Origin: a virus
Direction: 5' to 3' (one strand)
Length of the DNA: 37,040 bases
Virus record (IMG/VR): IMGVR_UViG_3300045988_150299
Location: 1 to 37,040 of that record
A program made the translations under genes and the position numbers. Below, piece after piece: positions 1,201 to 34,378 of the stretch. Below the pieces are notes generated by a model. It was given only the letters and a program-made list of their open reading frames with translations, was not told the DNA's origin and searched no databases. Position 1 is the stretch's first letter. Every line of letters starts with the position of its first letter.

Positions 1201-1602
1201 CTATTTGTAAAACAAAACTTGCAACGAATAATCTCTGTAATTTCTTTCTCCAAAGTTAACATTTATGTAATTTCCAGATATAGTTGTATTAAGTTCTGCT
1301 AATTTAGCAGAGCCAGTCATTATCATTTTAAATACTCTTCCATTAGTAATAGTAGCTTCATAACCTGCTATAGTTTTATATCCTGCATTTAAAATACAAT
1401 AATTCCACCCTCTATATTCTTCTGGTATCAAAAAACTTTTTCCAGTATTACTTGATGTTAAAGTAACTACTGCCCATTTCTTAGCGGTTTTCTCTAAGTT
1501 AGATAACCTATCATCTAACCCTTTCATAGTTATTGGAGTAGTAGAAGATTTTCCTTCCAGTGCTGATGTCCTATCATTTAAATTTTTCATAGTGATAGCC
1601 AT
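1201..1602 (-). CDS. Hypothetical virion or fibre-associated protein
   Basis: 133-aa ORF. Its start overlaps the stop of the upstream fibre gene by one base (both at 1602). Assignment is by position only. Confidence 0.4.
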   Translation of the reverse strand: MAITMKNLNDRTSALEGKSSTTPITMKGLDDRLSNLEKTAKKWAVVTLTSSNTGKSFLIPEEYRGWNYCILNAGYKTIAGYEATITNGRVFKMIMTGSAKLAELNTTISGNYINVNFGERNYRDYSLQVLFYK

Positions 1603-2714
1603 TATACCCTACCCCCTTTTAAATCTTCTATTTCCTTACTCATTTCTTTTACAGCTTCAATAAGTAAAGCTACTATATGTCCATACATAACAGTTAAATA
1701 ACCATTGTCCTCATTTTTGACCACAACTTCTGGCAATACTTTTTCAATCTCTTGAGCTATAACTCCAGCTTGTCTTTGTCCTGTACCTAACATAGTGAAT
1801 GTGTACCCATTGATTTGATTTACTTTTTTAAGAGCATTAGTTATCTTTGTTATATCAGTTTTTAATCTTCTATCTGAATAAGCCGTAACTTCTCCGTTTG
1901 AAACAATAGCTCCTGTTACTGTTAAGTTTCCATTAATAGTACCACCGGATTTTGGAAGTTTTGTATTATCAGCTATTGTAATATTGGCACTACCATCATA
2001 ACTAACTCCGTTGATAGTTCTAGCAGTTTGTAATTTTGTAGCAGTAGCAGAGTTCCCTGTACAAGCACCAGCACTATCAGCAGTTGTAGCACTCTTTGCT
2101 TTATCTTCTTTACCTAATTTACCATCTAATAAATTATTAGTTTCAGTTTTAGTATATACATCTGGTTTGTTTATTAATTTTTCATAATCGGTAGTCCCAG
2201 GTTGACCGCTTTGTCCTGGTATCCCTTGTTGACCTCTAGGGGCAGTAAAATCATATGTGCTACCATTAGTTAAAGTCACAGTATAAACATTTCCGCCATC
2301 TTCATTAGTATTCTTAAATGTTATACTTTTTACTCCTACTCCATCAACTCCTTTAGGACCTTGAATACCTTGCTCTCCAGTATCTCCTTTAGGACCTTTA
2401 GGACCAGTATTTCCAGTTATACCTTGTTCCCCTTTATCTCCCTTAGGTCCTTGAATACCTTGAGGACCTCGAGGACCTTGTGGTCCAGTATCTCCCTTAT
2501 CTCCTTTAGGACCTTGAATACCCTGCTCTCCAGTATCTCCCTTAGGACCTTGAGGACCTTGTATTCCTTGTTCTCCTTTTGCACCAGGTAAACCTTGAAT
2601 ACCTTGTTCCCCTTGTATTCCTTGTTCTCCTTTAGGACCTTGAGGTCCGATATCTCCTTGTTCTCCTTTAGGACCTTGAGGACCTACAACATTACCTATA
2701 ATTAATTTCGGCAT
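1602..2714 (-). CDS. Collagen-like tail fibre with a C-terminal intramolecular chaperone (peptidase S74) domain
   Basis: 38 uninterrupted Gly-X-Y triplets (aa 11-125). The C-terminus [13 protein letters not shown]...[15 protein letters not shown]...[15 protein letters not shown] matches the S74 auto-cleaving chaperone pattern (Ser codon at 1875-1877). Confidence 0.8.
2340..2684 (-). repeat. Gly-X-Y collagen-like triplet array 1 (coding repeat)
   Basis: Periodic ggaCCTtgaggacc-type 9-nt units on the plus strand, translating to [12 protein letters not shown] triplets on the minus strand. Confidence 0.9.
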
Positions 2715-2727
2715 AATTAAAACCTCC

Positions 2728-4107
2728 TTATTCTAAAATTTCTAATACTAAATTTCCATCTTCATCTATTGAAAAATTTGGTTGAGTATCATTCTCGTTA
2801 TAATATACAACTAAGTTTCCATCTTCTATTTGGAATATGTACTGACTATTTATAGGAGTGATTACAGCAGTTCCATTATCTCCTTTATCTCCCTTATCTC
2901 CTTTAGGACCTTGTATTCCTTGAGGACCTTGAGGTCCGATATCTCCCTGCTCTCCCTTAGGTCCTTGTTCTCCTTGTATTCCTTGAATGCCTTGTTCGCC
3001 TTTTAGTCCTTGAAGTCCTCTTTCTCCTTGAATGCCTTGTTCCCCTTGTATTCCTTGAATACCTTGAGGACCTGTTATTCCTTGAGGACCTTGAGGTCCA
3101 ACTTCTCCTTGTATTCCTTGCTCTCCTTGAATACCTTGAGGTCCATTTTCCCCTCTTTCTCCTTGGTCTCCTTTATCTCCTTTGAATCCTCTTTCTCCTC
3201 TTTCTCCTTTCGGTCCTTCTGGTCCATCATTGCCTTGAATACCTTGAGGACCTCTTCGTGCTAATAATTCTCCTATAATTTCTCCGTCTTCACGGTAGAC
3301 TGTATAGATGTTTCCTTCTGGTAATTCTTTATTAAAACCAACACTTGCTATTGAGTACCCTCTTTCTCCTTTTAAATCTTGCATATGATAGTCTATATAA
3401 TCTTGGATTTCTTTTTCTGCTTCTTCTATTTTTTCTTGTGTATATTTATCTAATTTTAAATAACTATCTGTTTTAAGATAATTATCAATAATTTCTTTTA
3501 AATCTTTTTCTAATTGAATAACTAGCTCTTTTACTCTATTATCCAAATCTTCAAGTAATATTTTTTTTGTATCTTCATAAATCTTATTGAGCAACTCTTG
3601 ATATTTCTCAAATAGTGTAGTTACAGGATAAGTAGCTATCCCATCATCTGACATATACCAGATAGAACCTTTTGGTAAATCTGGTAAACCTAATTGTTTG
3701 GGTATTCCACTATCTACAAATAATTGAGATTTTATAATTTCTTTTTCTGTTCCAAGTATTGCAGCTTTTATTTTAGTAAACATATTATTTAGATTTTCTG
3801 GTGTAATATCTCCTGTACTACTAAAAGTAAAATCTAAATCAAAATAAGGTTCAGACTTAACTATCTTAATATCTGTGTAATCATTCCATATGCCATCTGG
3901 GTAGTTAGTAAAATCAATGTTTCCAGCATTGTATGTGTAATAATCTTTAGGTATAAGGAATATAAAAGCTGTGCTAGTTATAGGATTTTGTTTTTTTCCG
4001 TAAACTTCACAACTTGTCATTAAGTCTGAAAAGCTAGTAGCATACTGTTGTCTATTCTCTTCTAACTTAAAATACTCTTTTTTAAAATTTAACATTTGCT
4101 TAAACAC
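2728..4107 (-). CDS. Collagen-like tail fibre or tail spike protein
   Basis: 459 aa: a non-repetitive N-terminal domain of about 285 aa, then 42 Gly-X-Y triplets (aa 286-412) and a short C-terminal knob. It sits directly after TerL and before the second fibre. Confidence 0.7.
2872..3252 (-). repeat. Gly-X-Y collagen-like triplet array 2 (coding repeat)
   Basis: 42 consecutive GXY triplets. It shares identical stretches of up to 23 bp with array 1 (for example ggaccttgaggtccgatatctcc at about 2636 and about 2921). Confidence 0.9.
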
Positions 4108-4115
4108 CTCTTTTC

Positions 4116-5627
4116 TTAATAATAAGTTGTTAGTGGTCCATCAAAACTATCTTTTAGATATATGCTAGCAAATATCATAGCAGTTCTAAATGAATCTGCG
4201 TCATCAGAAGCTTTATCATTTGCGTCGTGGTCTGGTATATCTAAGTAACAGTTCATGGACTTGTTATATTTTTTGACATAGCCTCCTAATTGTATAACTC
4301 CTATGTTACACTCGTTATTATCTATCTCTACATTGTCAAACTCCTTTCTTATATAGTTGATTTGATTTATTAATGTAGTCATATCATTTTTAGCTAGCTC
4401 TGTCTTAGACAGAGTTCTTACATCACTAAAATAATTTAATCTTATGTAGTCACTTCTTTTTGAAGTTGCACTCCATTCCTCGACATCTCCATCATGTGGT
4501 AGTACCATAGTAGGCTGCATATAGTACCCATTATCTTTGCACCATTTCTTTATATATTGGCAGCAGTGGTCTGGTCCTTGCCCAGTAACTCTATAATGTT
4601 TTATGAATCTAATTCTATTATTGTGAGGGTTTTTTTGAAAAAACCACAATACTGTATGGTCCCTTTTTCCTATATCCCAAGCAACATATAAAGGTTGTTG
4701 TGTCCAGAAATGCCCTGTGTATATTTGAGTATATCTTCTACTTACACTATCTAATAACTCTTCATACCTACCATAAAACTTTATCCTTTCATCTTCATAA
4801 GCTTTTTTTAGTTGTTCTCCATACCAAGCACCAACTAGATGAGTATTGATTTTACATTCCCACTCTTGAGCGTATGAATCTGGGTCCATAGTAAGAGCTT
4901 GTTTTCTAAGTTCTTTATCATTTATTACCCTCTCCCCTTTGTAGTTCAAAGAATCTTTTCCAGATTGAATATCTACATACCACATATCTTTAATTTCTTT
5001 ATTTTCTGGTTTACTTAGGATAGTGAAGTAATCTATAAAAAGTTTAGTAAACCAATTATATTTACCCCTCGGTGTAGAGATAAATATTACAAAACCGAAG
5101 TCGGTATTGTTAATAACCATATCAACTGCAGGTTTCATATATTGATAGAACTTTTCTTTTATAAGTGCTGCCTCTGTGTAAATAACTCCTCTAGCTCCTA
5201 CTCCTACACTTGCGTCTGGGTTATCTCCTCCACGAAAGAAGATTTTAGCTCCATTAAATAAAGTTACACTCCAATCGGATTTGTTAACTTTAGGTCCTCT
5301 TGGATTTGCTAGTATTTCATCTGGTATGAGGTTTTCAAGTAAAGGTAAACCGTTTAAGGTTTTCCCATCTACAACTATTTCTTTTACCTGTCTAAAGTAT
5401 GGTGCATAGATATAGTAGTTTCCTGGGTGTTGTATTGCAGCTAGTATCATAATGAGTAATGAAATAAAGTCCTTACCATATCTTCTATGAGCCATTAGTG
5501 CAAAATACTTTTTCTTATTTTCCAGGACATTGTCCAGAAGTTCTTTCTGTCCTTTGTGTAGATATTTAATAACTTTTTTATAACTGATAGTTACTCTTCT
5601 TTTTGCTGCTCTTCCTAAAAAATTCAA
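4116..5627 (-). CDS. terL: Terminase large subunit
   Basis: Walker A-like AHRRYGKD, Walker B-like GVIYTE, coupling motif ISTPRG, and nuclease motif [13 protein letters not shown] start 5 nt after the SD AAGGAGGTG. Confidence 0.75.
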
Positions 5628-5691
5628 AACTCCACCTCCTTACCTGTTTGATAGTTTGAAATTCCATCTTTTAAAAGTTGGAAAATAAAAA

Positions 5692-5717
5692 AAGGACAAC
5701 CCTTTTAGGTTGTCCTT
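5692..5717 (-). terminator. Rho-independent terminator (10-bp stem aaggacaacc/ggttgtcctt, 6-nt loop, U-run on the minus strand)
   Basis: Perfect stem read directly. The minus strand continues tttttttatttt. Confidence 0.7.
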
Positions 5718-5739
5718 TGATTTTTCTGTAAATGGAAAA

Positions 5740-5761
5740 AGGCAACTCTAAAAGGTTGCCT
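5740..5761 (-). terminator. Rho-independent terminator-like hairpin (aggcaac/gttgcct)
   Basis: 7-bp stem, 8-nt loop, followed by ttttcc on the minus strand. Confidence 0.5.
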
Positions 5762-5776
5762 GATTTTCTTAAAATT

Positions 5777-5805
5777 ATTATATCATTAAATACTAAAAAA
5801 GTCTA
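5777..5805 (-). promoter_or_regulatory. Sigma70-type promoter, extended -10 (TAGACT-17-TGaTATAAT)
   Basis: -35 is the reverse complement of 5800-5805. -10 is the reverse complement of 5777-5782. The spacer is exactly 17 bp and a TG lies one base upstream of the -10. Confidence 0.4.
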
Positions 5806-5806
5806 T

Positions 5807-5877
5807 AAAAAGAAAAAGGCTGGTATAGTTGCAGCTATACCAGCGATGAACATACTAAGTCTTTCGTTCTTCTTAGT
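5807..5877 (-). ncRNA. Predicted small RNA of about 70 nt, antisense in trans to the start of the small peptide ORF (candidate type I antitoxin RNA)
   Basis: Promoter TTGAAC-17-TGtTATAAT. A 5' hairpin (5877-5872/5859-5854) has the 12-nt loop AAGAACGAAAGA. A strong terminator follows (stem 5844-5835/5828-5819, then CUUUUUCUUUUU). Confidence 0.5.
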
Positions 5878-5883
5878 AATTAA

Positions 5884-5929
5884 ATTATAACAAAAATAAC
5901 TAGAAAGTTCAAGATATTTTTGTTATAAT
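5884..5929. promoter_or_regulatory. Back-to-back divergent promoters built on a perfect 14-bp inverted repeat
   Basis: attataacaaaaat (5884-5897) and atttttgttataat (5916-5929) are exact inverted repeats. Each arm supplies a TGtTATAAT extended -10. The -35 elements are gttcaa (5907-5912, minus strand) and tagaaa (5901-5906, plus strand), both at 17 bp. Confidence 0.55.
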
Positions 5930-5953
5930 AAGTCTAGCCCACCAAGAAAGGGG

Positions 5954-6034
5954 GTGAACATCATTAAGTCTTTCGTTCTAAGACTAATAATACTGGTTAT
6001 TCTGTTTTTCTTAGTAAACAGAGTTGCATTATAA
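5954..6034 (+). CDS. Small hydrophobic peptide (23-26 aa), candidate type I toxin
   Basis: SD AAGGGGGTG at 5948-5956. The frame is (GTG)-AAC-ATC-ATT-..., giving (M)NIIKSFVLRLIILVILFFLVNRVAL with TAA at 6032-6034. The likely start is ATC or ATT, 5-8 nt after the SD core. It has a single predicted TM helix. Confidence 0.4.
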   Translation: MNIIKSFVLRLIILVILFFLVNRVAL

Positions 6035-6046
6035 TTAGTCAAAAAA

Positions 6047-6075
6047 GGGGAGTGTTGCAGCACTCCTCCTTTTTT
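6047..6075. terminator. Bidirectional rho-independent terminator
   Basis: Stem ggagtg/cactcc with loop ttgcag. T-run 6070-6075 on the plus strand and an A-run at 6041-6046 (a U-run on the minus strand). It lies immediately after the stop of the 1633-aa gene. Confidence 0.65.
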
Positions 6076-9000
6076 ATTCTCCTACTATTTTTTCTGCTAA
6101 ACTATATCCTGTTTTAGCCATATTAACATTTGATGTACCTAGTCCTAGTTTTAAAATATTTGCTCCAGCTTTTTCAAAATCTCCTTTAGATAAATTTTGA
6201 GCTATCTGTATAGGTCTTCTTGCTACTGCTGAACCATTAACTAAAGCCCATGAGTTTATTTGAGAATCTAGCACTTCCCAAAATGCACTACCTGGACTAT
6301 CTATTAAATCATCTATTTTTTCATTGATAGTTGCTATTGGGTCAGTATAAAAATCTAAGTCAGTTACAAGTGCTAGTCCTCCATATAGTCCTGTTACTCC
6401 TAAGATATGTTTGAATAATCTTTTTTGCCATATCTTATTACCCCAATCAAAATGCCCATCTACTATATTAGAGGCGTATAAATCTCTTCCCAATCTTCTC
6501 CACTGTTCTTGTATAGAAGTTTTGAAGTTTCCCATCAACCTCATAAAATTTCTGTGGATAGGATTTTCAATATTTTCAATGACAGCTCTCATAGAAGCGT
6601 TGGTTTCAGTAGGTGAAATATCAGTAACTATTTTGTCATGTAACTTAGTTATTTTTTCAGTAATATTTTTTCTTATTAAGTCAAATTCTTCATTGTATAG
6701 AACTCTTCCTAATTGTTTTTCTACTTCTGATTTATTTATAAAATCAAATAAGTCAACTTCATTAAATACACCTAACTCATTAAATTCTGGAATATCTTTT
6801 AATTTTTTTATGAAATAAAAGTCTAAATCATCTATACCTACATTTTTAAATAAATTTTTCATATAGGCAGTATTATTTTTAAATAAATCATCTAAGTCTT
6901 GAAATTTACTCATATTTCTTAAAATCTCTGCACCCTCAAAAAAAGCTGCAAGTTTCATAACCTTTTGGCTCTCTCCATAAAAATTTAATTTATTAAGTCC
7001 TGTGTCTATTCCACTAATTATCTTTTCCCATTTTCTACCATACTTATTTATCCTTTCTGCTATCTCTCCTGTTACATCATCTGCCTTATCCATAATAGAG
7101 TTGAAAAATTTTAAAGGTACTGAATATTCAAATCTACTTCCTAAAGCTTTATCATATTTATCAAACATTTCTTTACTTAGATATAGCACTTGTGCAGCCT
7201 TTAAAAAATTTTTATAAGTTTCAGTAATACCTGCTGAATTATATAACATAGTGCTAGCCCTTGCCATTGTTGGTGCTTCAAATATAAAGTCCTTTGTAAA
7301 TTTAAGCCCTGTTAAACTAACTTTATTACTATAACTTAAAAAATTAGTAATAGCTTTGTCTGCTATTGTTTTTGGTGGTTTTGTAATTCTTCCTAAATCC
7401 ATTCCTATTCTATCATCTATTTTTTTCTCAATGGCTCTAACTAAAGTTTTATAAGTATCATTTGCAGTTTTTCTTTGAGTTTCATTCAAGATTCTTTCTA
7501 TACCATTCATTCCATGTCCTGGTAAATTATCTTTAATGGCTTTAGCTACTGAAATTTCTCTTATAAATCTTCTAATAGCTGTTCTATCAGAAGTCTTATT
7601 TTTATTTACAAGTCTTGTTAGATTTTTTCTTTTTATAATTTTTTCTCCATTAATAAAGTCATCAAATCTACCAAATCTATGAAGATGTCCTCCAAGAAAT
7701 TTATTTTTGTAACTTCCTTTCTTACTCATCATATCCATAGTATAAAAATATTTTGCATTATTTTTTCTACTTTCTAGTATATTTTGAGCTATAAGGTTAG
7801 TATCTACCTCTTTGTAAAAGTCTGATTTTTCAATAAATTCTTTTATTTGTGGTATTCCCTCAAGTTTATATTTTTTAACAAGTGCTTTCTTATCTGATGA
7901 ACTCATGCACTCGTTAGCTTTAGCCATTAATTTTATAATTTTTTCTTTAGGAGCTTTATTCTTTCCTTTAAGATTATTAATTAAAGTTTCTGGTGCTGAT
8001 TCAAAGAACTCTAAATTATCTTCTGCAAAAGCATTTCTTATAGTAAGCAATCTTTCTGGGATATTAAGTTCTACTAAATCATCATAACTCAAATCTCCTC
8101 TTATAAATTTATCTAAATCAACCTTTTTATCATCTCCTAGATACTTCAATATATCTTCTTGTCTTATATATTTTTCTGCACTTAGGTTATGGTCAAACAT
8201 AAAATTATTGACAATGTCATCTACTGTTATCTCATAACCATTTGTCAATTCTTTCATAGTGCTATAAAATTCTTCTCTTAATCTTAGTATCTCTGGTTCA
8301 AGCTCTTTTAAGCTATCTGGTAAACTTTTATAATTCCATCTAAATAGATAATGAGTTAGATTTTCTCCATTCTCTTCAAATAAACTTATTAATTTATCTG
8401 GATTCAATTTCTCGCCTTTATAAGTTATATTGAAAGCATTAGTTAGCATACCTTCCATTTGTTGCTTAGTTTTCTCGTATGGAATAAATAAATTTGTTTC
8501 AAGATATTCACTCATAAGTGATGAAGCTTGTCCAACGTCTTTAGCTTTCCAAAATATTTCTGGTATATCATTTTTCCACTTAGCATACTTACTAAAACTT
8601 TTTCTAAGTTCTGCTATTTTTTTACCTGGGTCTTTTATTCCTTTTACAGAATCAATCATATTTGAAAATGCTACTATGTCTTCAGTTCCTGTATTTTTAG
8701 GTAATTGTAAATCAAGTAATTCTACAGTTTCAGAATTTATTTTACCATCTTTTAACATGTTATTTATTTTGTCATTTATTATATAACTAATCTCAAAATT
8801 TACATCTGGATATTTAGAAAAATGTCCTTTTGTCATATCTTCTATAGCTTCTCCAAATGTCATATCTGCTATATCTTTTTTTTGAAATTTTATACTCTTA
8901 AATCCTGGAGCTTGGTATTTGTCTATTGCGTGTTCTATTTCATGCCTTAAAGTACCTAGTTTTAAATCTAAATCATCTTTCATCATTAATGGATTTAAAC

Positions 9001-10975
9001 TTATTTTTATTTCTCTTTGGTTACTTGAATTTATCCTACTTCTAGTAACTCCATAAACACTTGTAAATTGCTCTTCAGTTTCTCCTAAATATTCAAAATC
9101 TATTTTATATTTTTTCTTATAAAATTCAGCCATTTCTTCTGGAGTGTTTATATTATATTTTTTTCTAGCTATTTCTCCTGCTTTTTTTATTATTTTTTCA
9201 TGTACATCTCTTATTTGTGTCTTGTCAACTATACTATCAAGACCTAGTTCTTTATAAACTATTTTTTTTACTTCTTCAACACTAATAGGTTTTATTGGCT
9301 CTGGAGTTCCATTCATATCATCTACTATATTAGTTACTTTTCTTTGAGGTGTTATATTTTTTTGTGTTCCTGGTGCTGCATTAACATCAAGCTCGTATGT
9401 ATCTCCTAAATATCCATATTGCTCTGTAAGTCTATAATCTCCATAATATTTCTTACCATCTATTTCATATTCAAAGTTGATATGGGCATCTCCCTTTAAC
9501 CATTTTTTTCTAGTAATTGGAGTTCCATGTTCTGTAATATGTACTAAGTCTTGATATGGTGTTTTCTCAATAGCTCCTCTTACATACTTAACATTTGCAC
9601 CTGGTGGAATAATTCCATCTTTTTCAAGATTTGCTTGTAATGTTCCTGTTGGAAAATCTCTATAATTATGCTTTATTTTTCTTTTTTTTCTTTCAAAAGT
9701 TTCATTATCAACTATATGATGTTGTACTTTCATATCTTCAAATAAAGGTTCATAGCCACTATCATTGCCATTAAGATTTTTATCAACCTCTTCCATCATT
9801 CCTGGAACATCAACTCTTACATCAGTTATCTTGTCTGGGTTAGTCAAGTCTAAAAAGAACTCAAAAGCTTTCTTTTCTCCCTCTCCAAGCTTTCCACTAT
9901 CAATATATTCTTTTGCTAAATTTCTTATAAGAATCGGATTTTCATTTAAAATTTTATTGAAGTCAGCTCCGTTTTGAATAAAGTCTATATCTGGGTCATC
10001 TATCATTTTCAAGACAATAGACCTAGCATATAAGTCAGCTTGAAATTTATTAACATCATTTATATATAAATGCTTAAATAAAAATCTTTCACTACCTTGT
10101 GAGCCTTTATATTCATTTATAATACCTAGATTATCTTTTATTCCTACTGTATTTTCTAAATCTTTTATAGTCATATCTCCATTATTTAATATAGAGCTTT
10201 CTTGTATTTTTTTATCAGCCTCTGAAAATAGATCTATTATTATTTCTTGGGATTTCTTTTTTCTTGCTATATTATCAAACTTAGTTTCTATTTTATTAGC
10301 TACCTTACCTATTCCCATTCCTAGACCAGCAAATAAAAGTCCTGCACCAGCTCCACCAACTCCAGAATAAATAATCTCATCAAGTTCTGGAGTTCTACCC
10401 TCTGATATATAAACATCTGCACTTTCTTGCACCATATTTTCTATACCATTTAAAACTGCCGTTGTTCCAAGTCTACCAGCCACAGAAGTAGCTCCTATAT
10501 ATCCTGCAACATATGGAGTTAAAAGATTAGTTCCAAGTAACACAGGGAGTTGTCTTACATCAGTAGCAACTCTTAAACTCTCTGCTCCTGCACTCATAGC
10601 CCACTTTTGAGTTATATTGGGTTCTAATTCTATTTTTTTTCTAAAGCTATCTTTAAAGTTACTTGCAAAATCTTTATATTTTATATGGTTTTCCTCTGCT
10701 GTTTTTAAAAAATCTATAGGTTTTGTTTCTCCTGTTGCACTTTTATATGCAGCTCCTAACCAACTATAGTAAGTTGATTTTGCAATATTTTTAGAACTAG
10801 ATAATATATCTCCTATAATTTCTAATTGTGGTATATCATAAGATACTTTATTACCTACAACGTTGAATTTTTCTATATTTTCTTTGTTAGCCTCATAATA
10901 TTCTTTATTTATTTTAATTACATCATCATTACCCTCTAAAGATAATTTATTACCATAAGTTACAAGTCCTGCCAT
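6074..10975 (-). CDS. Giant internal virion / DNA-ejection protein (T7 gp16-like by position) with a zincin HExxH motif
   Basis: 1633 aa, last of a 178/708/1633-aa series after the tail tube genes. There is a Gly-rich TM region (GVGGAGAGLLFAGLGMGIG). HEIEH is at aa 678-682 (nt 8930-8944). Confidence 0.5.
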   Translation of the reverse strand: MAGLVTYGNKLSLEGNDDVIKINKEYYEANKENIEKFNVVGNKVSYDIPQLEIIGDILSSSKNIAKSTYYSWLGAAYKSATGETKPIDFLKTAEENHIKYKDFASNFKDSFRKKIELEPNITQKWAMSAGAESLRVATDVRQLPVLLGTNLLTPYVAGYIGATSVAGRLGTTAVLNGIENMVQESADVYISEGRTPELDEIIYSGVGGAGAGLLFAGLGMGIGKVANKIETKFDNIARKKKSQEIIIDLFSEADKKIQESSILNNGDMTIKDLENTVGIKDNLGIINEYKGSQGSERFLFKHLYINDVNKFQADLYARSIVLKMIDDPDIDFIQNGADFNKILNENPILIRNLAKEYIDSGKLGEGEKKAFEFFLDLTNPDKITDVRVDVPGMMEEVDKNLNGNDSGYEPLFEDMKVQHHIVDNETFERKKRKIKHNYRDFPTGTLQANLEKDGIIPPGANVKYVRGAIEKTPYQDLVHITEHGTPITRKKWLKGDAHINFEYEIDGKKYYGDYRLTEQYGYLGDTYELDVNAAPGTQKNITPQRKVTNIVDDMNGTPEPIKPISVEEVKKIVYKELGLDSIVDKTQIRDVHEKIIKKAGEIARKKYNINTPEEMAEFYKKKYKIDFEYLGETEEQFTSVYGVTRSRINSSNQREIKISLNPLMMKDDLDLKLGTLRHEIEHAIDKYQAPGFKSIKFQKKDIADMTFGEAIEDMTKGHFSKYPDVNFEISYIINDKINNMLKDGKINSETVELLDLQLPKNTGTEDIVAFSNMIDSVKGIKDPGKKIAELRKSFSKYAKWKNDIPEIFWKAKDVGQASSLMSEYLETNLFIPYEKTKQQMEGMLTNAFNITYKGEKLNPDKLISLFEENGENLTHYLFRWNYKSLPDSLKELEPEILRLREEFYSTMKELTNGYEITVDDIVNNFMFDHNLSAEKYIRQEDILKYLGDDKKVDLDKFIRGDLSYDDLVELNIPERLLTIRNAFAEDNLEFFESAPETLINNLKGKNKAPKEKIIKLMAKANECMSSSDKKALVKKYKLEGIPQIKEFIEKSDFYKEVDTNLIAQNILESRKNNAKYFYTMDMMSKKGSYKNKFLGGHLHRFGRFDDFINGEKIIKRKNLTRLVNKNKTSDRTAIRRFIREISVAKAIKDNLPGHGMNGIERILNETQRKTANDTYKTLVRAIEKKIDDRIGMDLGRITKPPKTIADKAITNFLSYSNKVSLTGLKFTKDFIFEAPTMARASTMLYNSAGITETYKNFLKAAQVLYLSKEMFDKYDKALGSRFEYSVPLKFFNSIMDKADDVTGEIAERINKYGRKWEKIISGIDTGLNKLNFYGESQKVMKLAAFFEGAEILRNMSKFQDLDDLFKNNTAYMKNLFKNVGIDDLDFYFIKKLKDIPEFNELGVFNEVDLFDFINKSEVEKQLGRVLYNEEFDLIRKNITEKITKLHDKIVTDISPTETNASMRAVIENIENPIHRNFMRLMGNFKTSIQEQWRRLGRDLYASNIVDGHFDWGNKIWQKRLFKHILGVTGLYGGLALVTDLDFYTDPIATINEKIDDLIDSPGSAFWEVLDSQINSWALVNGSAVARRPIQIAQNLSKGDFEKAGANILKLGLGTSNVNMAKTGYSLAEKIVGE

Positions 10976-15977: not shown

Positions 15978-16134
15978 CTATAAGTTTTTCTATGACAGAT
16001 AATTGTTCAAGAGTAGTCGCTGCTTCAATCCCTACTCTTCCAACAACTAAAAAGAAAGTTCTAGTTTTAATATATTTCTTTTTTAATAGATACCTCATTA
16101 ATTTATAAAACATTAAAAATAATTTATTTCTCAT
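15940..16134 (-). CDS. Hypothetical small protein (uncertain)
   Basis: 64-aa ORF with SD GAGGAGG 6 nt upstream of its ATG. It overlaps the end of the recombinase gene and the start of the next gene. Confidence 0.3.
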   Translation of the reverse strand: MRNKLFLMFYKLMRYLLKKKYIKTRTFFLVVGRVGIEAATTLEQLSVIEKLIDGGINIEKARSD

Positions 16135-16819
16135 TTTGTGCCTCCTCTAGTATAATATTTTTCTTATACTTGTAATATGTATTCTTAGTTATTCCTAGCA
16201 GTGTAAAGACTTCTATATCTTTAAGATTTCCTCCAAAATCTTTAGCTAGTTTTTTTATTTTCTCTCTCATCTCCTTTTCTTTCTTGGTAGTATAAGTATC
16301 TCCTTGTTTTCTACCTAATACAGTTCCTTTAGCTTTGGTAACTCTTAGTCCCTCTTTTGTTCTTTCTCTAAGGTCTAATACTTCCTTTTCAGCCTGGTCA
16401 AATGCTATTTTAATTTGTTCTTGAGCTAATATCTTCAATACTTCATTGGTTGCGTCTATGTATATATCAGCTATTTTATTTCCTGTTGAATCTATTTTAT
16501 TCTCTAAAGCTTTTTTATAAAGGGCTGTATTGATATATCCCTCTTTTAAAAATATAAGTTCAATATCTCTTTCTACAAAATTAAAATATTCTTTTATTCC
16601 CTCTTCTGCATTTCTACTCATTCTACTAACAGAATCAAATATAATTGTATCTCCGGGTTTAACCATTTTTTTTAGCTTACTCCATTCTTTTCTATCTGTT
16701 GTAGTTCCTGTATATGCTTCTTGAAATACTTTAGCAGTTGGATATATCTTTATGATATTTTCCACCTGTCTTAAAATATTTTGTTTTTTTGTAGATACTC
16801 TGCAATAACCATATATCAT
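16124..16819 (-). CDS. Small serine recombinase (resolvase/invertase family)
   Basis: N-terminal catalytic motif YCRVSTKKQ, then FDSVSRMSRN and LRERTKEGL. C-terminal HTH (LGITKNTYYKYKK). At 231 aa it has no large-serine-integrase extension. Confidence 0.85.
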   Translation of the reverse strand: MIYGYCRVSTKKQNILRQVENIIKIYPTAKVFQEAYTGTTTDRKEWSKLKKMVKPGDTIIFDSVSRMSRNAEEGIKEYFNFVERDIELIFLKEGYINTALYKKALENKIDSTGNKIADIYIDATNEVLKILAQEQIKIAFDQAEKEVLDLRERTKEGLRVTKAKGTVLGRKQGDTYTTKKEKEMREKIKKLAKDFGGNLKDIEVFTLLGITKNTYYKYKKNIILEEAQNEK

Positions 16820-29811: not shown

Positions 29812-30129
29812 TTATTGTTTTAAAAATTTAATAGCATCTAACATATGATTTAATTTTTTATTCTCTTCTTTTAATCTTTTTACCTCTTCTATCATTTCTG
29901 GGCTCATTCTATCGAAGTTCCAAGCTTCCCATGCTTCATTAGTTTCTTTCTCATTCAATTTTAAAAACTCTATTATTTTTTGCCAAGTTTCATATTTAGC
30001 AGTCTTTTTCCCATTTCTCATATAACTTAAATATACTTGGCTTATTCCTGCATACTCTGCCATATCTTTTAAATTTACATTTTTAGCAACTGAATATTTT
30101 TTTAAAAAAATCTCTGTATTAGTCATCAT
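29812..30129 (-). CDS. XRE-family HTH repressor (CI-like)
   Basis: LKDMAEYAGISQVYLSYMRNGKK is an HTH. The C-terminus is a coiled coil. The gene is divergent from the early operon. Confidence 0.65.
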   Translation of the reverse strand: MMTNTEIFLKKYSVAKNVNLKDMAEYAGISQVYLSYMRNGKKTAKYETWQKIIEFLKLNEKETNEAWEAWNFDRMSPEMIEEVKRLKEENKKLNHMLDAIKFLKQ

Positions 30130-30159
30130 AACACCTCGTTTTTACACTTTTTTATTTAT

Positions 30160-30188
30160 ATTATAGCACAAGCTATTAAATTTAGTAA
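30160..30188 (-). promoter_or_regulatory. Leftward promoter for the CI-like operon (TTACTA-17-TGcTATAAT)
   Basis: Extended -10 is the reverse complement of 30160-30168. The -35 is the reverse complement of 30183-30188. Confidence 0.45.
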
Positions 30189-30231
30189 ATAACCTAGTTT
30201 TTATTTTTAAACTTTTTTATTTAAAAAACTA

Positions 30232-30260
30232 TTGACAAATTAAAAAAAATTCTATATAAT
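30232..30260 (+). promoter_or_regulatory. Rightward early promoter, perfect consensus TTGACA-17-TATAAT
   Basis: TTGACA at 30232-30237, exact 17-bp spacer, TATAAT at 30255-30260. Confidence 0.7.
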
Positions 30261-30280
30261 TCAATTAAGAAATTAAACTA

Positions 30281-30304
30281 AAAGGTTTAAAAAAATAAAC
30301 CTTT
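30281..30304 (+). promoter_or_regulatory. 9-bp perfect inverted repeat in the early leader (operator or RNA hairpin)
   Basis: aaaggttta (30281-30289), A6 loop, taaaccttt (30296-30304). It lies between the predicted +1 and the radC SD. Confidence 0.35.
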
Positions 30305-30325
30305 AAATTTATAGGAGTTGGTAAT

Positions 30326-30841
30326 ATGAAAAAATTATTAAATTATTTAGGGTGCAGAAGTAAACAAGACTTAATATATCAATTTAAAAATAGTGATTCC
30401 GAAGAGATAGCAGAGTTGAGAATGGCTTTTGAATTAATAGCAGAGGATAGAGTAATGGATGATGAAATAAGATTAAAAGATAAGAAAAGTTTACTTGATT
30501 TTCTTAAATTCAAAGTAGGTTTTAAAGAAAGAGAAGAGTTTGTAGTAATTTTCTTAAATAATTACAACGTAATGACAGGATATGAAGTATTATTCACAGG
30601 AACAATAGATAAAAGTGCTGTATATCCAAGAGAGATAGCAGAAAGAGTTTTTAAATATAAAGCTAAGGGAGTAATATTTGCACATAATCATCCAAGCGGA
30701 AATTTAAGACCAAGTAAGCAAGATATTCAAATAACAGAACATATGCAAGAGTTCCTGGAAATGATAGATGTAAAACTTCTTGAGCATATAATTATCACAA
30801 AAGATGGACATTTTAGTTTTTTACAAGAGGGAATAATTTAA
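30326..30841 (+). CDS. radC: RadC-like JAB/JAMM domain protein
   Basis: The motif FAHNHPSGNLRPSKQD (HxHPSG...S..D) and size are typical. Confidence 0.85.
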   Translation: MKKLLNYLGCRSKQDLIYQFKNSDSEEIAELRMAFELIAEDRVMDDEIRLKDKKSLLDFLKFKVGFKEREEFVVIFLNNYNVMTGYEVLFTGTIDKSAVYPREIAERVFKYKAKGVIFAHNHPSGNLRPSKQDIQITEHMQEFLEMIDVKLLEHIIITKDGHFSFLQEGII

Positions 30842-30851
30842 GTTTTTATAG

Positions 30852-30874
30852 GTTCCCCAAGAGCCTTGGGGGAC
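30852..30874 (+). other. GC-rich stem-loop directly after radC (gttccccaag agc cttgggggac)
   Basis: 10-bp stem including one G-U pair, with a 3-nt loop. It has no clear U-run, so it may be an attenuator or processing site rather than a terminator. Confidence 0.3.
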
Positions 30875-30904
30875 TTGTTAAAAACTAAAAAGGGAGTTGG
30901 TATT

Positions 30905-31000
30905 ATGCCAGAATATTTAATGACAGATGAGGAGCTAGAAGCACTAGCAGAACAAATTTTTATTGAAAATCTTATTGAAGAGGGGGTTCTAGTATGGTAA
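30905..31000 (+). CDS. Unlisted 31-aa acidic peptide ORF (MPEYLMTDEELEALAEQIFIENLIEEGVLVW)
   Basis: SD AAGGGAG lies 8 nt upstream. Its stop overlaps the yqaJ-like start (ATGGTAA). Confidence 0.35.
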   Translation: MPEYLMTDEELEALAEQIFIENLIEEGVLVW

Positions 31001-31953
31001 ATCAAATGAGTATTTATGACATACCAAAGCATAATGGAATAACAGTATTCAAGGGAGATACTACAAATAGAGGGGAATGGTTAAAGCACCGTGTAATCGG
31101 TGCCTCTTCTATCCATAATCTTGTAGAAGTTGACAGATATAGAAAAGGTTGGATAGATAAAAAACCAGAATATTCAAGTCCTTGGTTATTGTATAAAAGT
31201 TTAAAAGGAGAATACGAACCTCAATTCAGTGAAATAACTCAAGATAAATTAGAGTTTGGACATTTTGCAGAAGATTTTATAAGAGCTAAATTTCCAGAAA
31301 AAGCAAAATTTAAAGTTTATGAAGTTATTCCAGGAGATGAAGTTATAAAGCATAAAGAATATGATTTCGCAACTTGTACCCCAGATGGCTGGGTTTCAAC
31401 TGATGAGGGTTGGTTCCCTATGGAGTGTAAAACTGGAGATAGTTTCCAATGGGATAAATGGAGTGGGGACACTGTACCAGATGAATATTATAGTCAATGC
31501 CAATGGATTTTAGAAGTTACAGGAAAAGAAAAAATGTATATACTTGGTTGGATAAACAACAGATTTACCAAAGTTTTTACAGTAGTTAAAGACCAAGAGT
31601 TCATAGACTATATGTTTTCTTTAGCTAAAGAGTTTTGGAAGAAATTCCAAAATAATATAGAACCAGAATTGATAGGAAATAAAGCAGAAGCTGAAGCACT
31701 TGGAATGGCTTATGAGATTCCAAAAGAAACTACTGAAAAAATAAAGTCAGAACTAGCACTTAACCTAGCTGATGAGCTACTTAACTCAATGCTAGAATTA
31801 AAAGAAATTGAAGAGAAAGCAAAACCAAAAGCTGATAGTATAAAACTTATGATAAAAAAAGAAATGCTAGAAAAAGGTGTTACACTTATGGAACTTGGAA
31901 ACGGACTTATAGCAAAATTAAATAAACGTGGAGCTTTAACAATAGGAGGATAA
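30994..31953 (+). CDS. YqaJ-type (lambda Exo-like, PD-(D/E)XK) recombination exonuclease
   Basis: TCTPDGWV...FPMECKTGD provides the D...ExK motif. It is paired with an annealase gene. Confidence 0.75.
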   Translation: MVNQMSIYDIPKHNGITVFKGDTTNRGEWLKHRVIGASSIHNLVEVDRYRKGWIDKKPEYSSPWLLYKSLKGEYEPQFSEITQDKLEFGHFAEDFIRAKFPEKAKFKVYEVIPGDEVIKHKEYDFATCTPDGWVSTDEGWFPMECKTGDSFQWDKWSGDTVPDEYYSQCQWILEVTGKEKMYILGWINNRFTKVFTVVKDQEFIDYMFSLAKEFWKKFQNNIEPELIGNKAEAEALGMAYEIPKETTEKIKSELALNLADELLNSMLELKEIEEKAKPKADSIKLMIKKEMLEKGVTLMELGNGLIAKLNKRGALTIGG

Positions 31954-31954
31954 T

Positions 31955-32914
31955 ATGGAAGTAATAGCTAAAAACAATATGATGGGAAAGAAACAGGTTT
32001 CAGAGATGAAGCCTGTTAAAGAGATAAAGGCAGAACAAATGGAAATGGGGATTGAAAGTAGATTACTTGAGGAAGTAAAGGCAGCAGTATTTTTAGCAAA
32101 ACAATTTCCTAGAGATGAAATAAAAGCAGAAAATAAAATACTAGAGCTATGTAAAAGAAAGAATTTTGCTGATACTGCCTTATATTCATTTCCTAGAGGT
32201 GGAGAAGTTGTGCAAGGTTTAACTATAAGATTTGCTGAAGCAGTTGCAAGAGCTTGGGGTAATATTCAATACTCGGTAATAGAATTAGATACAGATGATG
32301 GAAAATCTACAATGTTAGCTTATGCCTGGGACGTTGAAAACAATATCAAAACTACAAAGCAATTTGATGTATCTATGAAAAGATATACAAAAAAAGGTGC
32401 TTATGTTTTAACAGATATGAGGGACCAATACGAGATGAAAGCAAGTTATGGAGCTAGATTTTTAAGAGGTTGTATCTTGAATTTAATACCTAATTATATT
32501 TTAGATTCCTGCATAGAAGAGATAAAAACAACTATGGAAAGAGAGATTGAAAGCATAGAGGATATTTCACAAGCTAAAGAACAGATATTAATTTTCTTGG
32601 AAAATAAATTAAATCTTTCTAAGCAAGAACTAGAAAATTTTTTAAACTGTCCATATGAGAGCTGGACTTCTAGCCATCTAGTTAATTTAAAATTAGCTTA
32701 TAATGGTATTAAAGAGGGGCAATTAAAAATATCTGATTTAAAAGAAGTTACTCCAGTAAGTGATATTACAGAAGAGCAAATCCAAGAGTTATTAAAATTA
32801 GATAAACAAGGTATTTTACTTATGGAGTGTAAAAGAAAATATAATAAAGTATTACTTGAAAGATTGAATAATAAAGAATATGAAGAGTTAAAAGAGTTAC
32901 TAACAAGTAAATAA
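31955..32914 (+). CDS. RecT/Red-beta superfamily single-strand annealing protein (putative)
   Basis: It lies immediately downstream of the exonuclease. YEMKASYGARFLRGCILNLIP resembles RecT EEMAKKTAIRRLFKYLP. Confidence 0.5.
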   Translation: MEVIAKNNMMGKKQVSEMKPVKEIKAEQMEMGIESRLLEEVKAAVFLAKQFPRDEIKAENKILELCKRKNFADTALYSFPRGGEVVQGLTIRFAEAVARAWGNIQYSVIELDTDDGKSTMLAYAWDVENNIKTTKQFDVSMKRYTKKGAYVLTDMRDQYEMKASYGARFLRGCILNLIPNYILDSCIEEIKTTMEREIESIEDISQAKEQILIFLENKLNLSKQELENFLNCPYESWTSSHLVNLKLAYNGIKEGQLKISDLKEVTPVSDITEEQIQELLKLDKQGILLMECKRKYNKVLLERLNNKEYEELKELLTSK

Positions 32915-32917
32915 AAA

Positions 32918-32937
32918 TGGCAGGTTTATTCCTGCCA
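32918..32937 (+). terminator. Rho-independent terminator after the recombination genes
   Basis: Stem tggcagg/cctgcca, loop tttatt, followed by cttttatt. Confidence 0.6.
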
Positions 32938-33102
32938 CTTTTATTAAAGAATCTCGAATAACATATGACGATTAAAAAAAGCATCTTATATGGGGTTAAA
33001 AATTTGGATACAGTAGTATAATATACTTTTGGGTATAAGTCAATATCTTTTTAAAATTATAATACCACGAAGTTTTGTCAAAAATAAAAAAATCTCTAAA
33101 AT

Positions 33103-33152
33103 AGTTTAGAGAGTTTATATATAATATAGTTTATAATAGTTTATAGAGTTTA
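33103..33152 (+). repeat. Five AGTTTA(T) short direct repeats in the AT-rich segment of the origin
   Basis: Copies are at 33103, 33112, 33128, 33138 and 33147. The palindrome tctctaaa/tttagaga (33094-33113) is adjacent. Confidence 0.4.
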
Positions 33153-33194
33153 CAGTCCTCTCCAGCTCTTAATTTTAGAGAGCTAGAAACAAGA

Positions 33195-33329
33195 TACTGT
33201 GAAGTTTTGTCAGAATAGTGTGAAGTTTTGTCAGAAATAGAGGGGTATAGTGTGAAGTTTTGTCAGCCCATACTGTGAAGTTTTGTCAGAATAGTGTGAA
33301 GTTTTGTCAATAGTGTGAAGTTTTGTCAG
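33195..33329 (+). repeat. Iteron array: six 19-bp direct repeats TA(G/C)TGTGAAGTTTTGTCA(G/A)
   Basis: Copies start at 33195, 33216, 33248, 33271, 33292 and 33311, mostly 19-23 bp apart. A truncated copy lies at 33338-33345 and a core-only copy at 33069-33080. The array is directly upstream of the Rep_3 gene. Confidence 0.85.
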
Positions 33330-33418
33330 TTTATTAATAGTGTGAAAAAAAATAAAAAAATGTTGTATAAAAAGAAAATATAAGTTAAAATTATATCAGA
33401 GTGAAAAGGGGGTAAGAC

Positions 33419-34378
33419 ATGGAAATTAAAAATGAAGTTGTAGAATACTCAAAAGATTTTGCTACCAGCTTCAATGAGTTTGGAAGTTATGAACTTGATT
33501 TAATTGTAACTTTAGCTTATGCTGCTAGAAAAAAAATTAAAGACCATATGAATGTAAATACAAATGAGAATGTAAATTTGTTTTTAGACCCTAAAGTCAT
33601 AAAAAAAATGGTTCAAGGAAATGTAAGTACCAAAAGAATAGAAGAGGCTTTGAAAAACATTTTTAATACAAGTGTTCAAATAAAAAAAGATGGGTACAAG
33701 CTGCATAAACACATATTTGAAACTTTGATGTATACAGAAGATAAAACAGAAATTATATTTGAATTAAAAAAAGATTTTATCCCACTTTTTTTTAATTTAA
33801 GCAATAATTTTACAAGACATGAATTACTAGAATTTACAGGTTTAAAGGGTAGACATTCCAAGAGGCTCTATCAAATAGTTATGAGTTATAAAAATTTAAA
33901 GTCTTGGGAATTTGCACCAGATGAATTTTTAAAAATTTTAAATACTCAATATAGATGGGTAGATGTAGAAACTAAGATAATAAAAAAAGCTGCAGAAGAA
34001 CTAGCAGAGAAAACTAATATAAAAAATCTAAAAATGGAAAGAGTAAGAACAGGAAAATTTATTACTAAAATAATTTTGAGTTGGGATATAGAGCAAATGG
34101 AAGTGCTAGATAAAGATGGAACTGAAACAGAAATAAAAGAGGCTGAAAAAGTTGAATCATTAACATTTGAACAGTTAGAAGATTTGGAAAAAGCTTTAGA
34201 AAAAGCTAGAAAAAATAGGTTTATAGAACCTTATTTAACACTTGAAAATGTTGGAAAACTTATGGAGAACTTTCCATATGAGCAATTGAAAAAAGGCTTG
34301 ATTTCATGTTACAAAAATATCAATATTGAGATTAGAAGTTTTAGTTACATATTTAATCATATTAAGGGGGTAAAATGA
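33419..34378 (+). CDS. Rep_3 / RepB-family iteron-binding plasmid replication initiator
   Basis: The N-terminus EYSKDFATSFNEFGSYELDLIVTLAY and the central FTRHELLEFTGLKGRHSKRLYQIVMSYKN...FAPDEFLKILN fit the Rep_3 winged-helix pattern. Iterons lie upstream. Confidence 0.7.
   Translation: MEIKNEVVEYSKDFATSFNEFGSYELDLIVTLAYAARKKIKDHMNVNTNENVNLFLDPKVIKKMVQGNVSTKRIEEALKNIFNTSVQIKKDGYKLHKHIFETLMYTEDKTEIIFELKKDFIPLFFNLSNNFTRHELLEFTGLKGRHSKRLYQIVMSYKNLKSWEFAPDEFLKILNTQYRWVDVETKIIKKAAEELAEKTNIKNLKMERVRTGKFITKIILSWDIEQMEVLDKDGTETEIKEAEKVESLTFEQLEDLEKALEKARKNRFIEPYLTLENVGKLMENFPYEQLKKGLISCYKNINIEIRSFSYIFNHIKGVK

Follow-up and report, generated by a model that had tools for sequence, protein, structure and literature searches.

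A putative type I toxin-antitoxin-like cassette with co-varying antisense RNAs beside the TerL gene of a human-gut phage-plasmid

The virus sequence IMGVR_UViG_3300045988_150299 of IMG/VR was analyzed over positions 1 to 37,040 of the record (the window). It contains a gene-free gap of 446 bp (5628-6073) between the gene of a 1633-amino acid (aa) protein (6074-10975, minus strand) and the TerL gene (4116-5627, minus strand; phrog_2, E=1.8e-27). An accessory cassette was found in this gap (5806-6073), consisting of two divergent transcription units that each have their own terminator. One unit is predicted to produce the mRNA of a small hydrophobic peptide, the other a small RNA that can pair in trans with the start region of this mRNA. 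Natural alleles of the cassette make it very probable that the two form a real trans-antisense RNA pair. The wider reading, in which the cassette is a self-contained type I toxin-antitoxin (TA)-like module that joins the gene layout of tisB/istR to start-site pairing like that of par/Fst, is considered likely, though with appreciable doubt, and the peptide would then have a toxin or addiction role. An earlier note, made from the letters of the window, had proposed a self-contained divergent pair of a small RNA and a small hydrophobic open reading frame (ORF) with trans complementarity at the start region. This central idea is strongly supported by the sequence comparisons described here.

The complementarity stems from a direct repeat in the DNA (5847-5870 and 5955-5979), which spans the start region of the ORF and includes an exact 15-nt repeat, TAAGTCTTTCGTTCT, at 5856-5870 and 5965-5979. 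One copy lies in the gene of the predicted small RNA of ~70 nt, the candidate antitoxin (5807-5877, minus strand), the other in that of the predicted peptide mRNA of ~140 nt (5936-6075, plus strand). Trans complementarity arising from a duplication, as had been proposed, was recovered with RNAduplex as a predicted duplex of 28 bp between nt 8-36 of the small RNA (5842-5870, minus strand) and nt 15-44 of the mRNA (5950-5979, plus strand), covering the core of the Shine-Dalgarno (SD) sequence, the GUG start codon and codons 2-9. The duplex is imperfect and contains a bulge and G·U pairs. Predicted energies of cognate duplexes range from -33 to -39 kcal/mol, and the ORF start region is the best non-self target of the small RNA in the 37-kb window, with -39 kcal/mol versus -25 kcal/mol for the runner-up. 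Base pairing of an RNA antitoxin with the toxin mRNA is a criterion for type I TA systems; here it is found as a predicted duplex with covariation, between two transcripts that are themselves predicted.

The small RNA had been described as ~70 nt long with a 5' hairpin and a strong terminator. The terminator was found (5819-5844, minus strand); it has a 10-bp stem followed by CUUUUUCUUU and is conserved in all alleles. The fold of the small RNA has a z-score of -3.15. The 5' hairpin did not stand, being weak (-3.2 kcal/mol), absent unless the 5' 33 nt are folded by themselves, and altered in alleles T3 and T4. The 5' end of the small RNA is predicted to be either open or in this hairpin, and the 5' end of the mRNA to be base-paired. 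Post-segregational killing requires that the antitoxin RNA be less stable than the toxin mRNA, for which these 5' ends and the mRNA fold give indirect evidence. A target hairpin at 5963-5988 was absent from both the minimum-energy and the centroid folds, and the kissing-loop design attributed to the pair was not reproduced by folding, nor is it conserved across the alleles. The small RNA is taken to be non-coding, because its internal 16-codon ORF (MFIAGIAATIPAFFFL) is frameshifted in allele T4. Transcription attenuation of the pT181/pIP501 type was rejected after sequence inspection, which revealed no alternative anti-terminator pairing for the hairpin at 5819-5844, and so was copy-number control, the cassette being located 27 kb away from rep.

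The pairing was examined in 47 near-identical human-gut contigs from IMG/VR, JGI, ENA, NCBI and Logan assemblies, which originate from many independent samples and from which duplicate fetches were removed. These contigs carry six alleles of the central cassette region (T1, T1b, T1c, T2, T3 and T4). Of the 99 member sequences in the TerL cluster, 6 were sampled. For each allele the 5' parts of the small RNA and the mRNA were concatenated, and the RNAduplex pairing of the window's allele was imposed on them. The complementary blocks, whose co-variation in relatives the earlier note had called for, indeed co-vary across the six alleles. With 28 intermolecular pairs, 98.8 % of the 167 pair cells are standard pairs and 2 cells are unpaired. 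Five pairs have changed on both sides (9 cells) and six on one side only, in each of these six in a way that G·U wobble accommodates. With the partner shifted by 1-3 columns, pairing fell to 41-53 %. None of 500 shuffles reached the observed pairing percentage or covariation score; these shuffle statistics are not probabilities, and it counts against the strength of the result that the alleles number only six and are related to each other. At the sites that are C-G and A-U in T1 and U-A and G-C in T2, allele T1c has U·G and G·U. Judged by its sequence, T1c is a wobble intermediate on a stepwise compensatory path between T1 and T2.

The pairs also show a strand asymmetry. G·U is found in 9 pair columns and A·C in none (binomial p=0.004), and taking the opposite strands as the RNAs would lower pairing to 86 %. 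This 9:0 asymmetry indicates that selection acts on RNA from the strands predicted by the promoters, and is the strongest indirect sign of transcription obtained here. Gene conversion between the direct repeats could in principle mimic covariation, but it cannot explain the strand asymmetry, which argues against simple conversion at the DNA level. Variation is also unevenly spread over the cassette: the two pairing blocks account for 59 of its 268 nt but for 20 of its 33 variable positions (Fisher p=2.6e-7), while the 101 nt of 5976-6076, harbouring the C-terminal 19 codons of the ORF, the 3' untranslated region (UTR) and the terminator, are invariant in all 47 contigs. The region 5800-5999 forms a local divergence peak between genomes that are otherwise ~99 % identical.

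Signals for transcription of both units were identified in the gap, the coordinates of which agree with those given before. The inverted repeat with mirror-image extended -10 promoters and 17-bp spacers, noticed earlier, was found at 5884-5929. It has a perfect 14-bp core (5884-5897/5916-5929) and its arms extend to 22 nt at 91 % complementarity. The predicted promoter of the peptide mRNA (TAGAAA-17 nt-TGtTATAAT; 5901-5929, plus strand) and that of the small RNA (TTGAAC-17 nt-TGtTATAAT; 5884-5912, minus strand) are consensus matches only. The -10 and -35 elements of both are kept in all alleles, substitutions being located in the spacers or preserving the -35 match (TTGAAC, TTGAAT, TTGAAA). 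The genes diverge from these back-to-back promoters and the two predicted transcripts do not overlap. The peptide mRNA ends at a bidirectional terminator (6047-6068, both strands), which immediately follows the stop codon of the 1633-aa gene convergent to it. No contig varies in this terminator, not even those whose 1633-aa gene is of a very different allele. Terminator-like sites are clearly in excess, with 7 observed and 0.4 expected by chance. Promoter-like sites are not above chance in DNA of 30 % GC (4 observed versus 3.5 expected from shuffles), and the promoters therefore cannot rest on pattern matching alone.

Some further similarities within the gap were observed. The two cassette terminators (5825-5838 and 6052-6063) share the central 8-mer GCTGCAAC in minus-strand reading, and the two hairpins of the TerL leader described below share CAACC...GGTTG, so that local duplication may have given rise to the terminators in pairs. 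In plus-strand reading the small-RNA gene (5847-5885) resembles an internally deleted pseudo-copy of the peptide ORF, ATGAACATACTAAGTCTTTCGTTCT...TCTTAGTAA (repeats D1 and D6). This suggests that the putative antitoxin gene arose by partial duplication of the putative toxin gene. Derivation of the small-RNA unit from the unit of a third promoter, P3, was rejected, the local alignment being marginal with 23 of 500 shuffles scoring as well. A 52-aa ORF on the plus strand (5732-5890) was also discarded; it crosses three terminator hairpins and is not conserved in the relative L019.

The junction between the 1633-aa gene and TerL was compared in seven relatives with a TerL identity of 56-68 % (L019/L020, L021/L022, L101, L102, L136, L138 and L139), and nothing like the cassette was present at this junction in any of the seven. 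What most of them keep is homologous to 5628-5805 and comprises just a promoter with one or two terminator-like hairpins and a ribosome-binding site (RBS) for TerL. By this comparison the gap is composed of two parts, a conserved TerL leader (5628-5805) and a moron-like cassette (5806-6073), which is an accessory insertion because it is absent from relatives that retain the leader. The locus had earlier been placed inside the virion operon; it does lie in the gap, but as an accessory insertion at the operon boundary, just upstream of the separate promoter and leader of TerL. On its other side the 1633-aa gene is mosaic in its 3' part (about 6080-8070). In the contigs L003 and L004 this gene differs from that of the window at ~40-50 positions per 100 nt up to the cassette terminator, while cassette and TerL are nearly identical despite this divergence, and the recombination breakpoint appears to coincide with the bidirectional terminator. 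The predicted length of the product of the 1633-aa gene varies from 1245 to 1844 aa across contigs.

These data also bear on a reading without any functional unit, in which the gap would hold leftover duplicated DNA and operon punctuation, with chance promoters in AT-rich DNA and repeats kept alike by gene conversion. The unenriched promoter matches agree with it, as do the likeness of the small-RNA block to an internally deleted copy of the ORF and the weak resemblance of the small-RNA unit to the P3 unit. It is nevertheless regarded as highly improbable. The 9:0 ratio of G·U to A·C is not expected from homogenisation of DNA, the wobble intermediate T1c points to stepwise compensation at the RNA level, and variation is concentrated in the pairing blocks next to invariant DNA. 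Moreover, the cassette is unchanged across the mosaic genomes, and it is not needed as operon punctuation, as relatives do without it entirely.

The peptide ORF (5954-6034, plus strand) consists of 26 codons, MNIIKSFVLRLIILVILFFLVNRVAL, when read from its GUG start, and of 23 codons when read from an in-frame AUU or AUA at 5963. The hydrophobic ORF of 23-26 codons ending at a bidirectional terminator was thus found as had been noticed. The peptide has a grand average of hydropathy of 2.06, and its best 19-aa Kyte-Doolittle window scores 2.81. In this it agrees with the description of type I toxins as small (<60 aa) hydrophobic proteins with a predicted transmembrane (TM) helix. None of the six alleles disrupts the reading frame; the peptide varies at its N-terminus (MNIIKSFVLR, MNIIKNSILR, MEIIKNFVLR or MEAIKNFVLR) and is otherwise invariant. 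The start of the predicted mRNA was placed 7 nt past the -10 element, which leaves a 5' UTR of ~18 nt. Folding of the plus-strand RNA gave a minimum free energy of -45.6 kcal/mol (z = -5.89), with a helix in which the mRNA 5' end, GCCCACC, sequesters the SD-like run AGAAAGGGGGUG (5937-5956, plus strand). In the four alleles folded, the unpaired probability of the GGGGG core is 0.01-0.17, and a C/U polymorphism at 5943 preserves a pair of the helix, which is then C-G or U·G. Compared with the canonical complement of the 16S 3' end, the SD-like run agrees at 13 of 15 positions. Sequestration of the SD by the 5' end (seen in four alleles), the low z-score of the fold and the strong hydrophobicity of the peptide are traits in common with known type I toxin mRNAs.

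Several observations weigh against a translated toxin, and against the module as proposed. The GUG at 5954 is the sole canonical start, and it touches the GGGGG core of the SD with zero spacing, which the earlier note had missed. Well-spaced in-frame start codons are near-cognate only (AUU or AUA at 5963, codon 4). Since the GUG lacks SD spacing and the other candidates are near-cognate, translation may be very inefficient or may not occur at all, or the ORF may be spurious. Without interruption the hydrophobic stretch extends over just 11 residues (LIILVILFFLV), between R10 and N22-R23. No substitution pattern by which coding could be tested is offered by the C-terminal two-thirds of the ORF, as these are invariant in all contigs; the sole coding-type signal is that indels occur in the small-RNA copy (a block of 37, 38 or 39 nt) and never in the ORF copy. 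The peptide has no match in Pfam (E<=10), in PADLOC or by tblastn in the phage and plasmid collections, where a low-complexity filter may have masked the query. A degenerate 12-codon pattern back-translated from the peptide core had no match among 185,579 species genomes, and in IMG/VR it hit only this phage (four contigs). Neither RNA reached the gathering score of an Rfam family in a search with permissive thresholds that returned 37 weak hits; scores at noise level were obtained for ohsC (19.3 bits, gathering 50), symR (17.5, gathering 61), SIB_RNA (14.9, gathering 56) and RatA. Cargo at this junction could also serve other prophage functions, such as exclusion. Finally, Fusobacterium is the likely host, but this assignment hangs on one source, which labels a TerL 68 % identical to that of the window as Fusobacterium varium.

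If the ORF were incidental, neither transcript would be coding and the two RNAs would constitute a regulatory or specificity device based on RNA-RNA pairing, acting in immunity or incompatibility like P1 c4 and P4 CI RNA, or as a sponge with another target in phage or host. The start codon without usable SD spacing, the unusual structure of the plus-strand RNA and the absence of an extractable coding signature all speak for such a device. Co-varying allelic specificity also recalls the heteroimmunity of P1 and P7, in which specificity types are set by the joint variation of c4 RNA and its target among related phages. Indeed, the immI region of P1/P7, with c4 acting on icd-ant, resembles the cassette in being a trans-acting antisense system on a phage-plasmid. 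However, c4 is processed from the transcript of its own target and controls a downstream antirepressor, whereas the cassette consists of two divergent units and its plus-strand transcript terminates without any gene after the ORF. In addition, the small RNA has no other good target in the 37-kb genome, and the free co-variation of both partners speaks against a constrained third one. The ORF has been spared the indels that the small-RNA copy tolerates, it is strongly hydrophobic, and the SD-like run matches the complement of the 16S 3' end at most positions. A purely non-coding pair is therefore considered quite unlikely.

Another possibility retains the peptide as an antisense-controlled membrane protein that is not an addiction toxin and functions in superinfection exclusion, lysis timing or modulation of the host membrane, with the small RNA merely tuning or silencing it. 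The evidence for RNA pairing applies equally to this case, and the weak start context suggests low-level expression. The junction is moreover a site for cargo: L136 (60 % TerL identity) has an unrelated gene there for a 160-aa multi-pass membrane protein (755-1237 on the minus strand of its locus, opposite to the late genes), for which no Pfam or PADLOC match was found. With this gene at the same position, the junction of internal-virion-protein gene and TerL looks like a hot spot for accessory (moron) insertions. On the other hand, a start-site duplex of ~28 bp combined with an SD lock is far tighter than tuning requires, and alleles that diversify and co-vary are more in keeping with a kill-and-rescue pair than with a housekeeping membrane factor. 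A peptide of 23-26 residues would also be very small compared with known exclusion proteins. A non-toxic membrane peptide is on balance thought to be rather unlikely.

The type I TA-like module, which remains the preferred reading, resembles several described systems in part. In tisB/istR-1, shoB/ohsC, zorO/orzO and dinQ/agrB the genes are likewise non-overlapping and divergent with adjacent promoters (PMC4147584, PMC3919570). Members of this class share with the cassette a short trans complementarity, a tiny hydrophobic peptide of 26-29 aa and a structured toxin mRNA with an occluded ribosome-binding site. The architecture of tisB/istR-1, shoB/ohsC and zor/orz ascribed to the locus in the earlier note therefore holds for the gene layout. 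It does not hold for the pairing site, as antitoxins of the tisB/istR class pair in a long 5' UTR without overlapping the initiation site or coding sequence (PMC4147584), whereas pairing in the cassette covers the SD core, the start and codons 2-9, behind a 5' UTR of ~18 nt. Other differences are that no sequence similarity exists (no Pfam hit; ohsC below gathering score in Rfam), that the known systems are chromosomal in enterobacteria while the cassette resides on a phage-plasmid, probably of Fusobacterium, and that its two promoters are mirror images within one palindrome.

In its manner of pairing the cassette is closer to par (Fst/RNA I-RNA II) of Enterococcus faecalis pAD1. In par, too, complementarity comes from direct repeats (DRa, DRb) read in opposite directions, and pairing blocks ribosome binding at the toxin initiation region (PMC4147584). 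The par toxin is likewise small and hydrophobic, and par itself is a plasmid-stabilising module. However, the par RNAs are convergent and have a common bidirectional terminator that also takes part in pairing, whereas the cassette is divergent with separate terminators (5819-5844 and 6047-6068). Initiation by loop-loop contact, as in par, is not supported by folding in the cassette. Its peptide does not belong to the Fst/Ldr families in so far as the Pfam library, in which it had no match, includes families of the Fst type.

Systems with overlapping genes are more distant. The Ibs toxins of E. coli are also very short (18-19 aa), with a hydrophobic core that is rich in Ile, Leu and Val and resembles RLIILVILFFLV. 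The Sib RNAs, unlike the small RNA of the cassette, are fully overlapping cis-antisense RNAs, and SIB_RNA stayed far below its gathering score. The TA pairs of Clostridioides difficile are cis-antisense and overlapping as well, with toxins of ~50 aa. The cassette differs from all cis-antisense TAs (hok/sok, ibs/sib, txpA/ratA and those of C. difficile) in that its small-RNA gene is located ~60 bp upstream of the mRNA start, past the promoters, and in that its duplex is imperfect, whereas antitoxins encoded opposite their toxin genes are perfectly complementary over the overlap. Type I TAs do help to maintain C. difficile prophages, for instance phiCD630-1 (PMC7699646), and these modules are comparable as type I TAs on a temperate phage of a gut anaerobe; they show no sequence similarity to the cassette and belong to integrated prophages rather than to a Rep3/ParA phage-plasmid. 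Judged by function the cassette is best filed as a candidate type I TA, and by family with none of those described.

A mechanism may be proposed from these features. The plus strand would yield a structured mRNA of ~140 nt for a single-helix hydrophobic peptide of 23-26 residues, presumed to be a membrane toxin. With the SD core locked by its own 5' end, translation of this mRNA would be low until it is processed. From the mirror-image promoter the minus strand would yield the terminated small RNA of ~70 nt, and the direct repeat would enable nt 8-36 of this RNA to form a duplex of ~28 bp with nt 15-44 of the mRNA. The duplex would block entry of the 30S subunit and probably create a substrate for RNase III. 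In the plasmid state both promoters would fire, and upon loss of the element the less structured small RNA would decay first, leaving the peptide to kill the cell. In the lytic phase, transcripts reading through from the convergent virion operon would be antisense to the peptide mRNA. For a cassette carried by a Rep3/ParA phage-plasmid, post-segregational killing or exclusion of competing incompatible variants would be the most likely role.

The alleles would fit such a role, as the co-varying forms behave in the predictions as at least two specificity groups, and allelic specificity groups are compatible with addiction modules in competition between incompatible plasmids. Cross-pairs between {T1, T1b, T1c, T2} and {T3, T4} have predicted energies of -20 to -26 kcal/mol, compared with -33 to -39 kcal/mol for cognate pairs, and T2 is partly cross-reactive with the T1 group. 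This cross-reaction is predicted to be asymmetric, in that mRNA of the T1 type is paired well by the T2 small RNA but T2 mRNA poorly by the T1 small RNA. It can be speculated that the alleles constitute an RNA compatibility code among near-identical phage-plasmids, in which a resident that is replaced by a variant kills the cell if the small RNA of the newcomer fails to neutralise the resident's peptide mRNA. At least two or three specificity groups may exist in that case, T1/T1b/T1c, the partly cross-reactive T2, and T3/T4, and balancing or diversifying selection would keep divergent alleles in a 130-bp island flanked by invariant DNA. This code is put forward tentatively, and it is doubtful that it applies in full.

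The window as a whole is a podovirus-like element of ~37 kb with nearly all genes on the minus strand. It encodes virion proteins (TerL, a T7-type portal, tail proteins and collagen-like tail fibres), plasmid-type functions (a Rep3 initiator with Rep3_N/Rep3_C, ParA and an HTH repressor-like protein), and furthermore a RecE/YqaJ exonuclease, RadC, a serine recombinase and a holin. The plasmid-type module and the serine recombinase lie at 29812-35840 and 16124-16819. No tyrosine integrase was found among the window ORFs scanned, which were part of all ORFs. A phage-plasmid is expected to combine virion genes with plasmid-type genes for replication and partition and to lack an integrase, as seen here for the ORFs scanned; the presence of Rep3, ParA and the repressor-like protein thus suggests a phage-plasmid lifestyle for a podovirus with a T7-type portal, and the plasmid-prophage context assumed for the locus at the outset fits this gene content. 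In the plasmid-type module the HTH repressor-like gene is divergent from RadC, with RecE/YqaJ, a phrog_3657 protein, Rep3, ParA and a 224-aa partner alongside. The serine recombinase/invertase is situated amid virion genes. TerL is followed by two consecutive collagen-repeat tail-fibre genes (1602-4107, minus strand), the second of which has a C-terminal Peptidase_S74 intramolecular chaperone domain, and the gene order is unusual in that TerL is placed between internal virion proteins and fibres. Human gut is the origin in all record names that state one. A TerL scan of 185,579 species-representative genomes revealed no relative and no copy of the phage, and for that reason the host could not be confirmed. 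Likewise, a DNA similarity search with 5400-6400 gave no match in the GenBank phage and PLSDB plasmid collections.

The TerL leader next to the cassette has features that had previously gone unnoticed. A third promoter, P3 (TAGACT-17 nt-TGaTATAAT; 5777-5805, minus strand), is part of this leader and lies outside the cassette; its equivalent precedes TerL in L019, L022, L101, L102, L136 and L139. It is followed by two tandem terminator-like hairpins (5761-5740 and 5718-5691, minus strand), also missed before, and by the TerL RBS, AAGGAGGTGG, with a TTG start (5625-5641, minus strand). Promoter and two-hairpin leader are found together in L019, L022, L101, L136 and L139 (58-68 % TerL identity), L102 (56 %) has the promoter and a single hairpin, and L138 is without leader. 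The consensus fold of the leader over 7 relatives has 23 pairs, 10 of which show compensatory changes, and two motifs are near-invariant, TAAGAAA at the 5' end of the transcript and GTTGCCTTTTTCCATTT. The leader resembles a late promoter with terminators that need antitermination, such as lambda PR'-tR'. Between its second hairpin and the TerL RBS a 29-nt indel polymorphism occurs (5654-5682), with the deletion form in L001, the L004 group (4 contigs), L104 and L126. In some contigs with allele T2 (L113-L119, about 1195-1203) the TerL start is ATG (GGAGGTGGAAAATGAATTTT), compared with TTG (GGAGGTGGAGTTTTGAATTTT) in the window.

Type I TA families are regarded as narrow in distribution and are difficult to detect by homology (PMC5367252). 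A literature search for type I TAs of Fusobacterium or for Fusobacterium phage-plasmids found nothing relevant. Should the preferred reading be correct, the cassette would represent a sequence-novel family that joins the divergent layout of tisB/istR to the direct-repeat start-site occlusion of par/Fst, on an uncultured phage-plasmid that is widespread in the human gut (47 contigs, many independent samples). Its natural allele series with a wobble intermediate would be a ready experiment on the evolution of antitoxin specificity, and would also allow a test of whether addiction modules mediate competition between incompatible phage-plasmids. If the alleles indeed form a compatibility code, the cassette would be the first described example of a type I TA in Fusobacteriota and on a phage-plasmid of podovirus type, and a natural case of stepwise compensatory evolution via G·U intermediates that switches antitoxin specificity. 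Under the preferred reading, a toxin of 26 residues with a matched RNA switch might be used for counter-selection or plasmid stabilisation in Fusobacterium genetics. If the peptide were non-toxic, the locus would still be a well-supported trans-antisense RNA pair in a phylum with few known. The architecture is familiar to specialists; what makes the case worthwhile and easily testable is the phylum in which it occurs, its location on a phage-plasmid and its naturally occurring specificity alleles.

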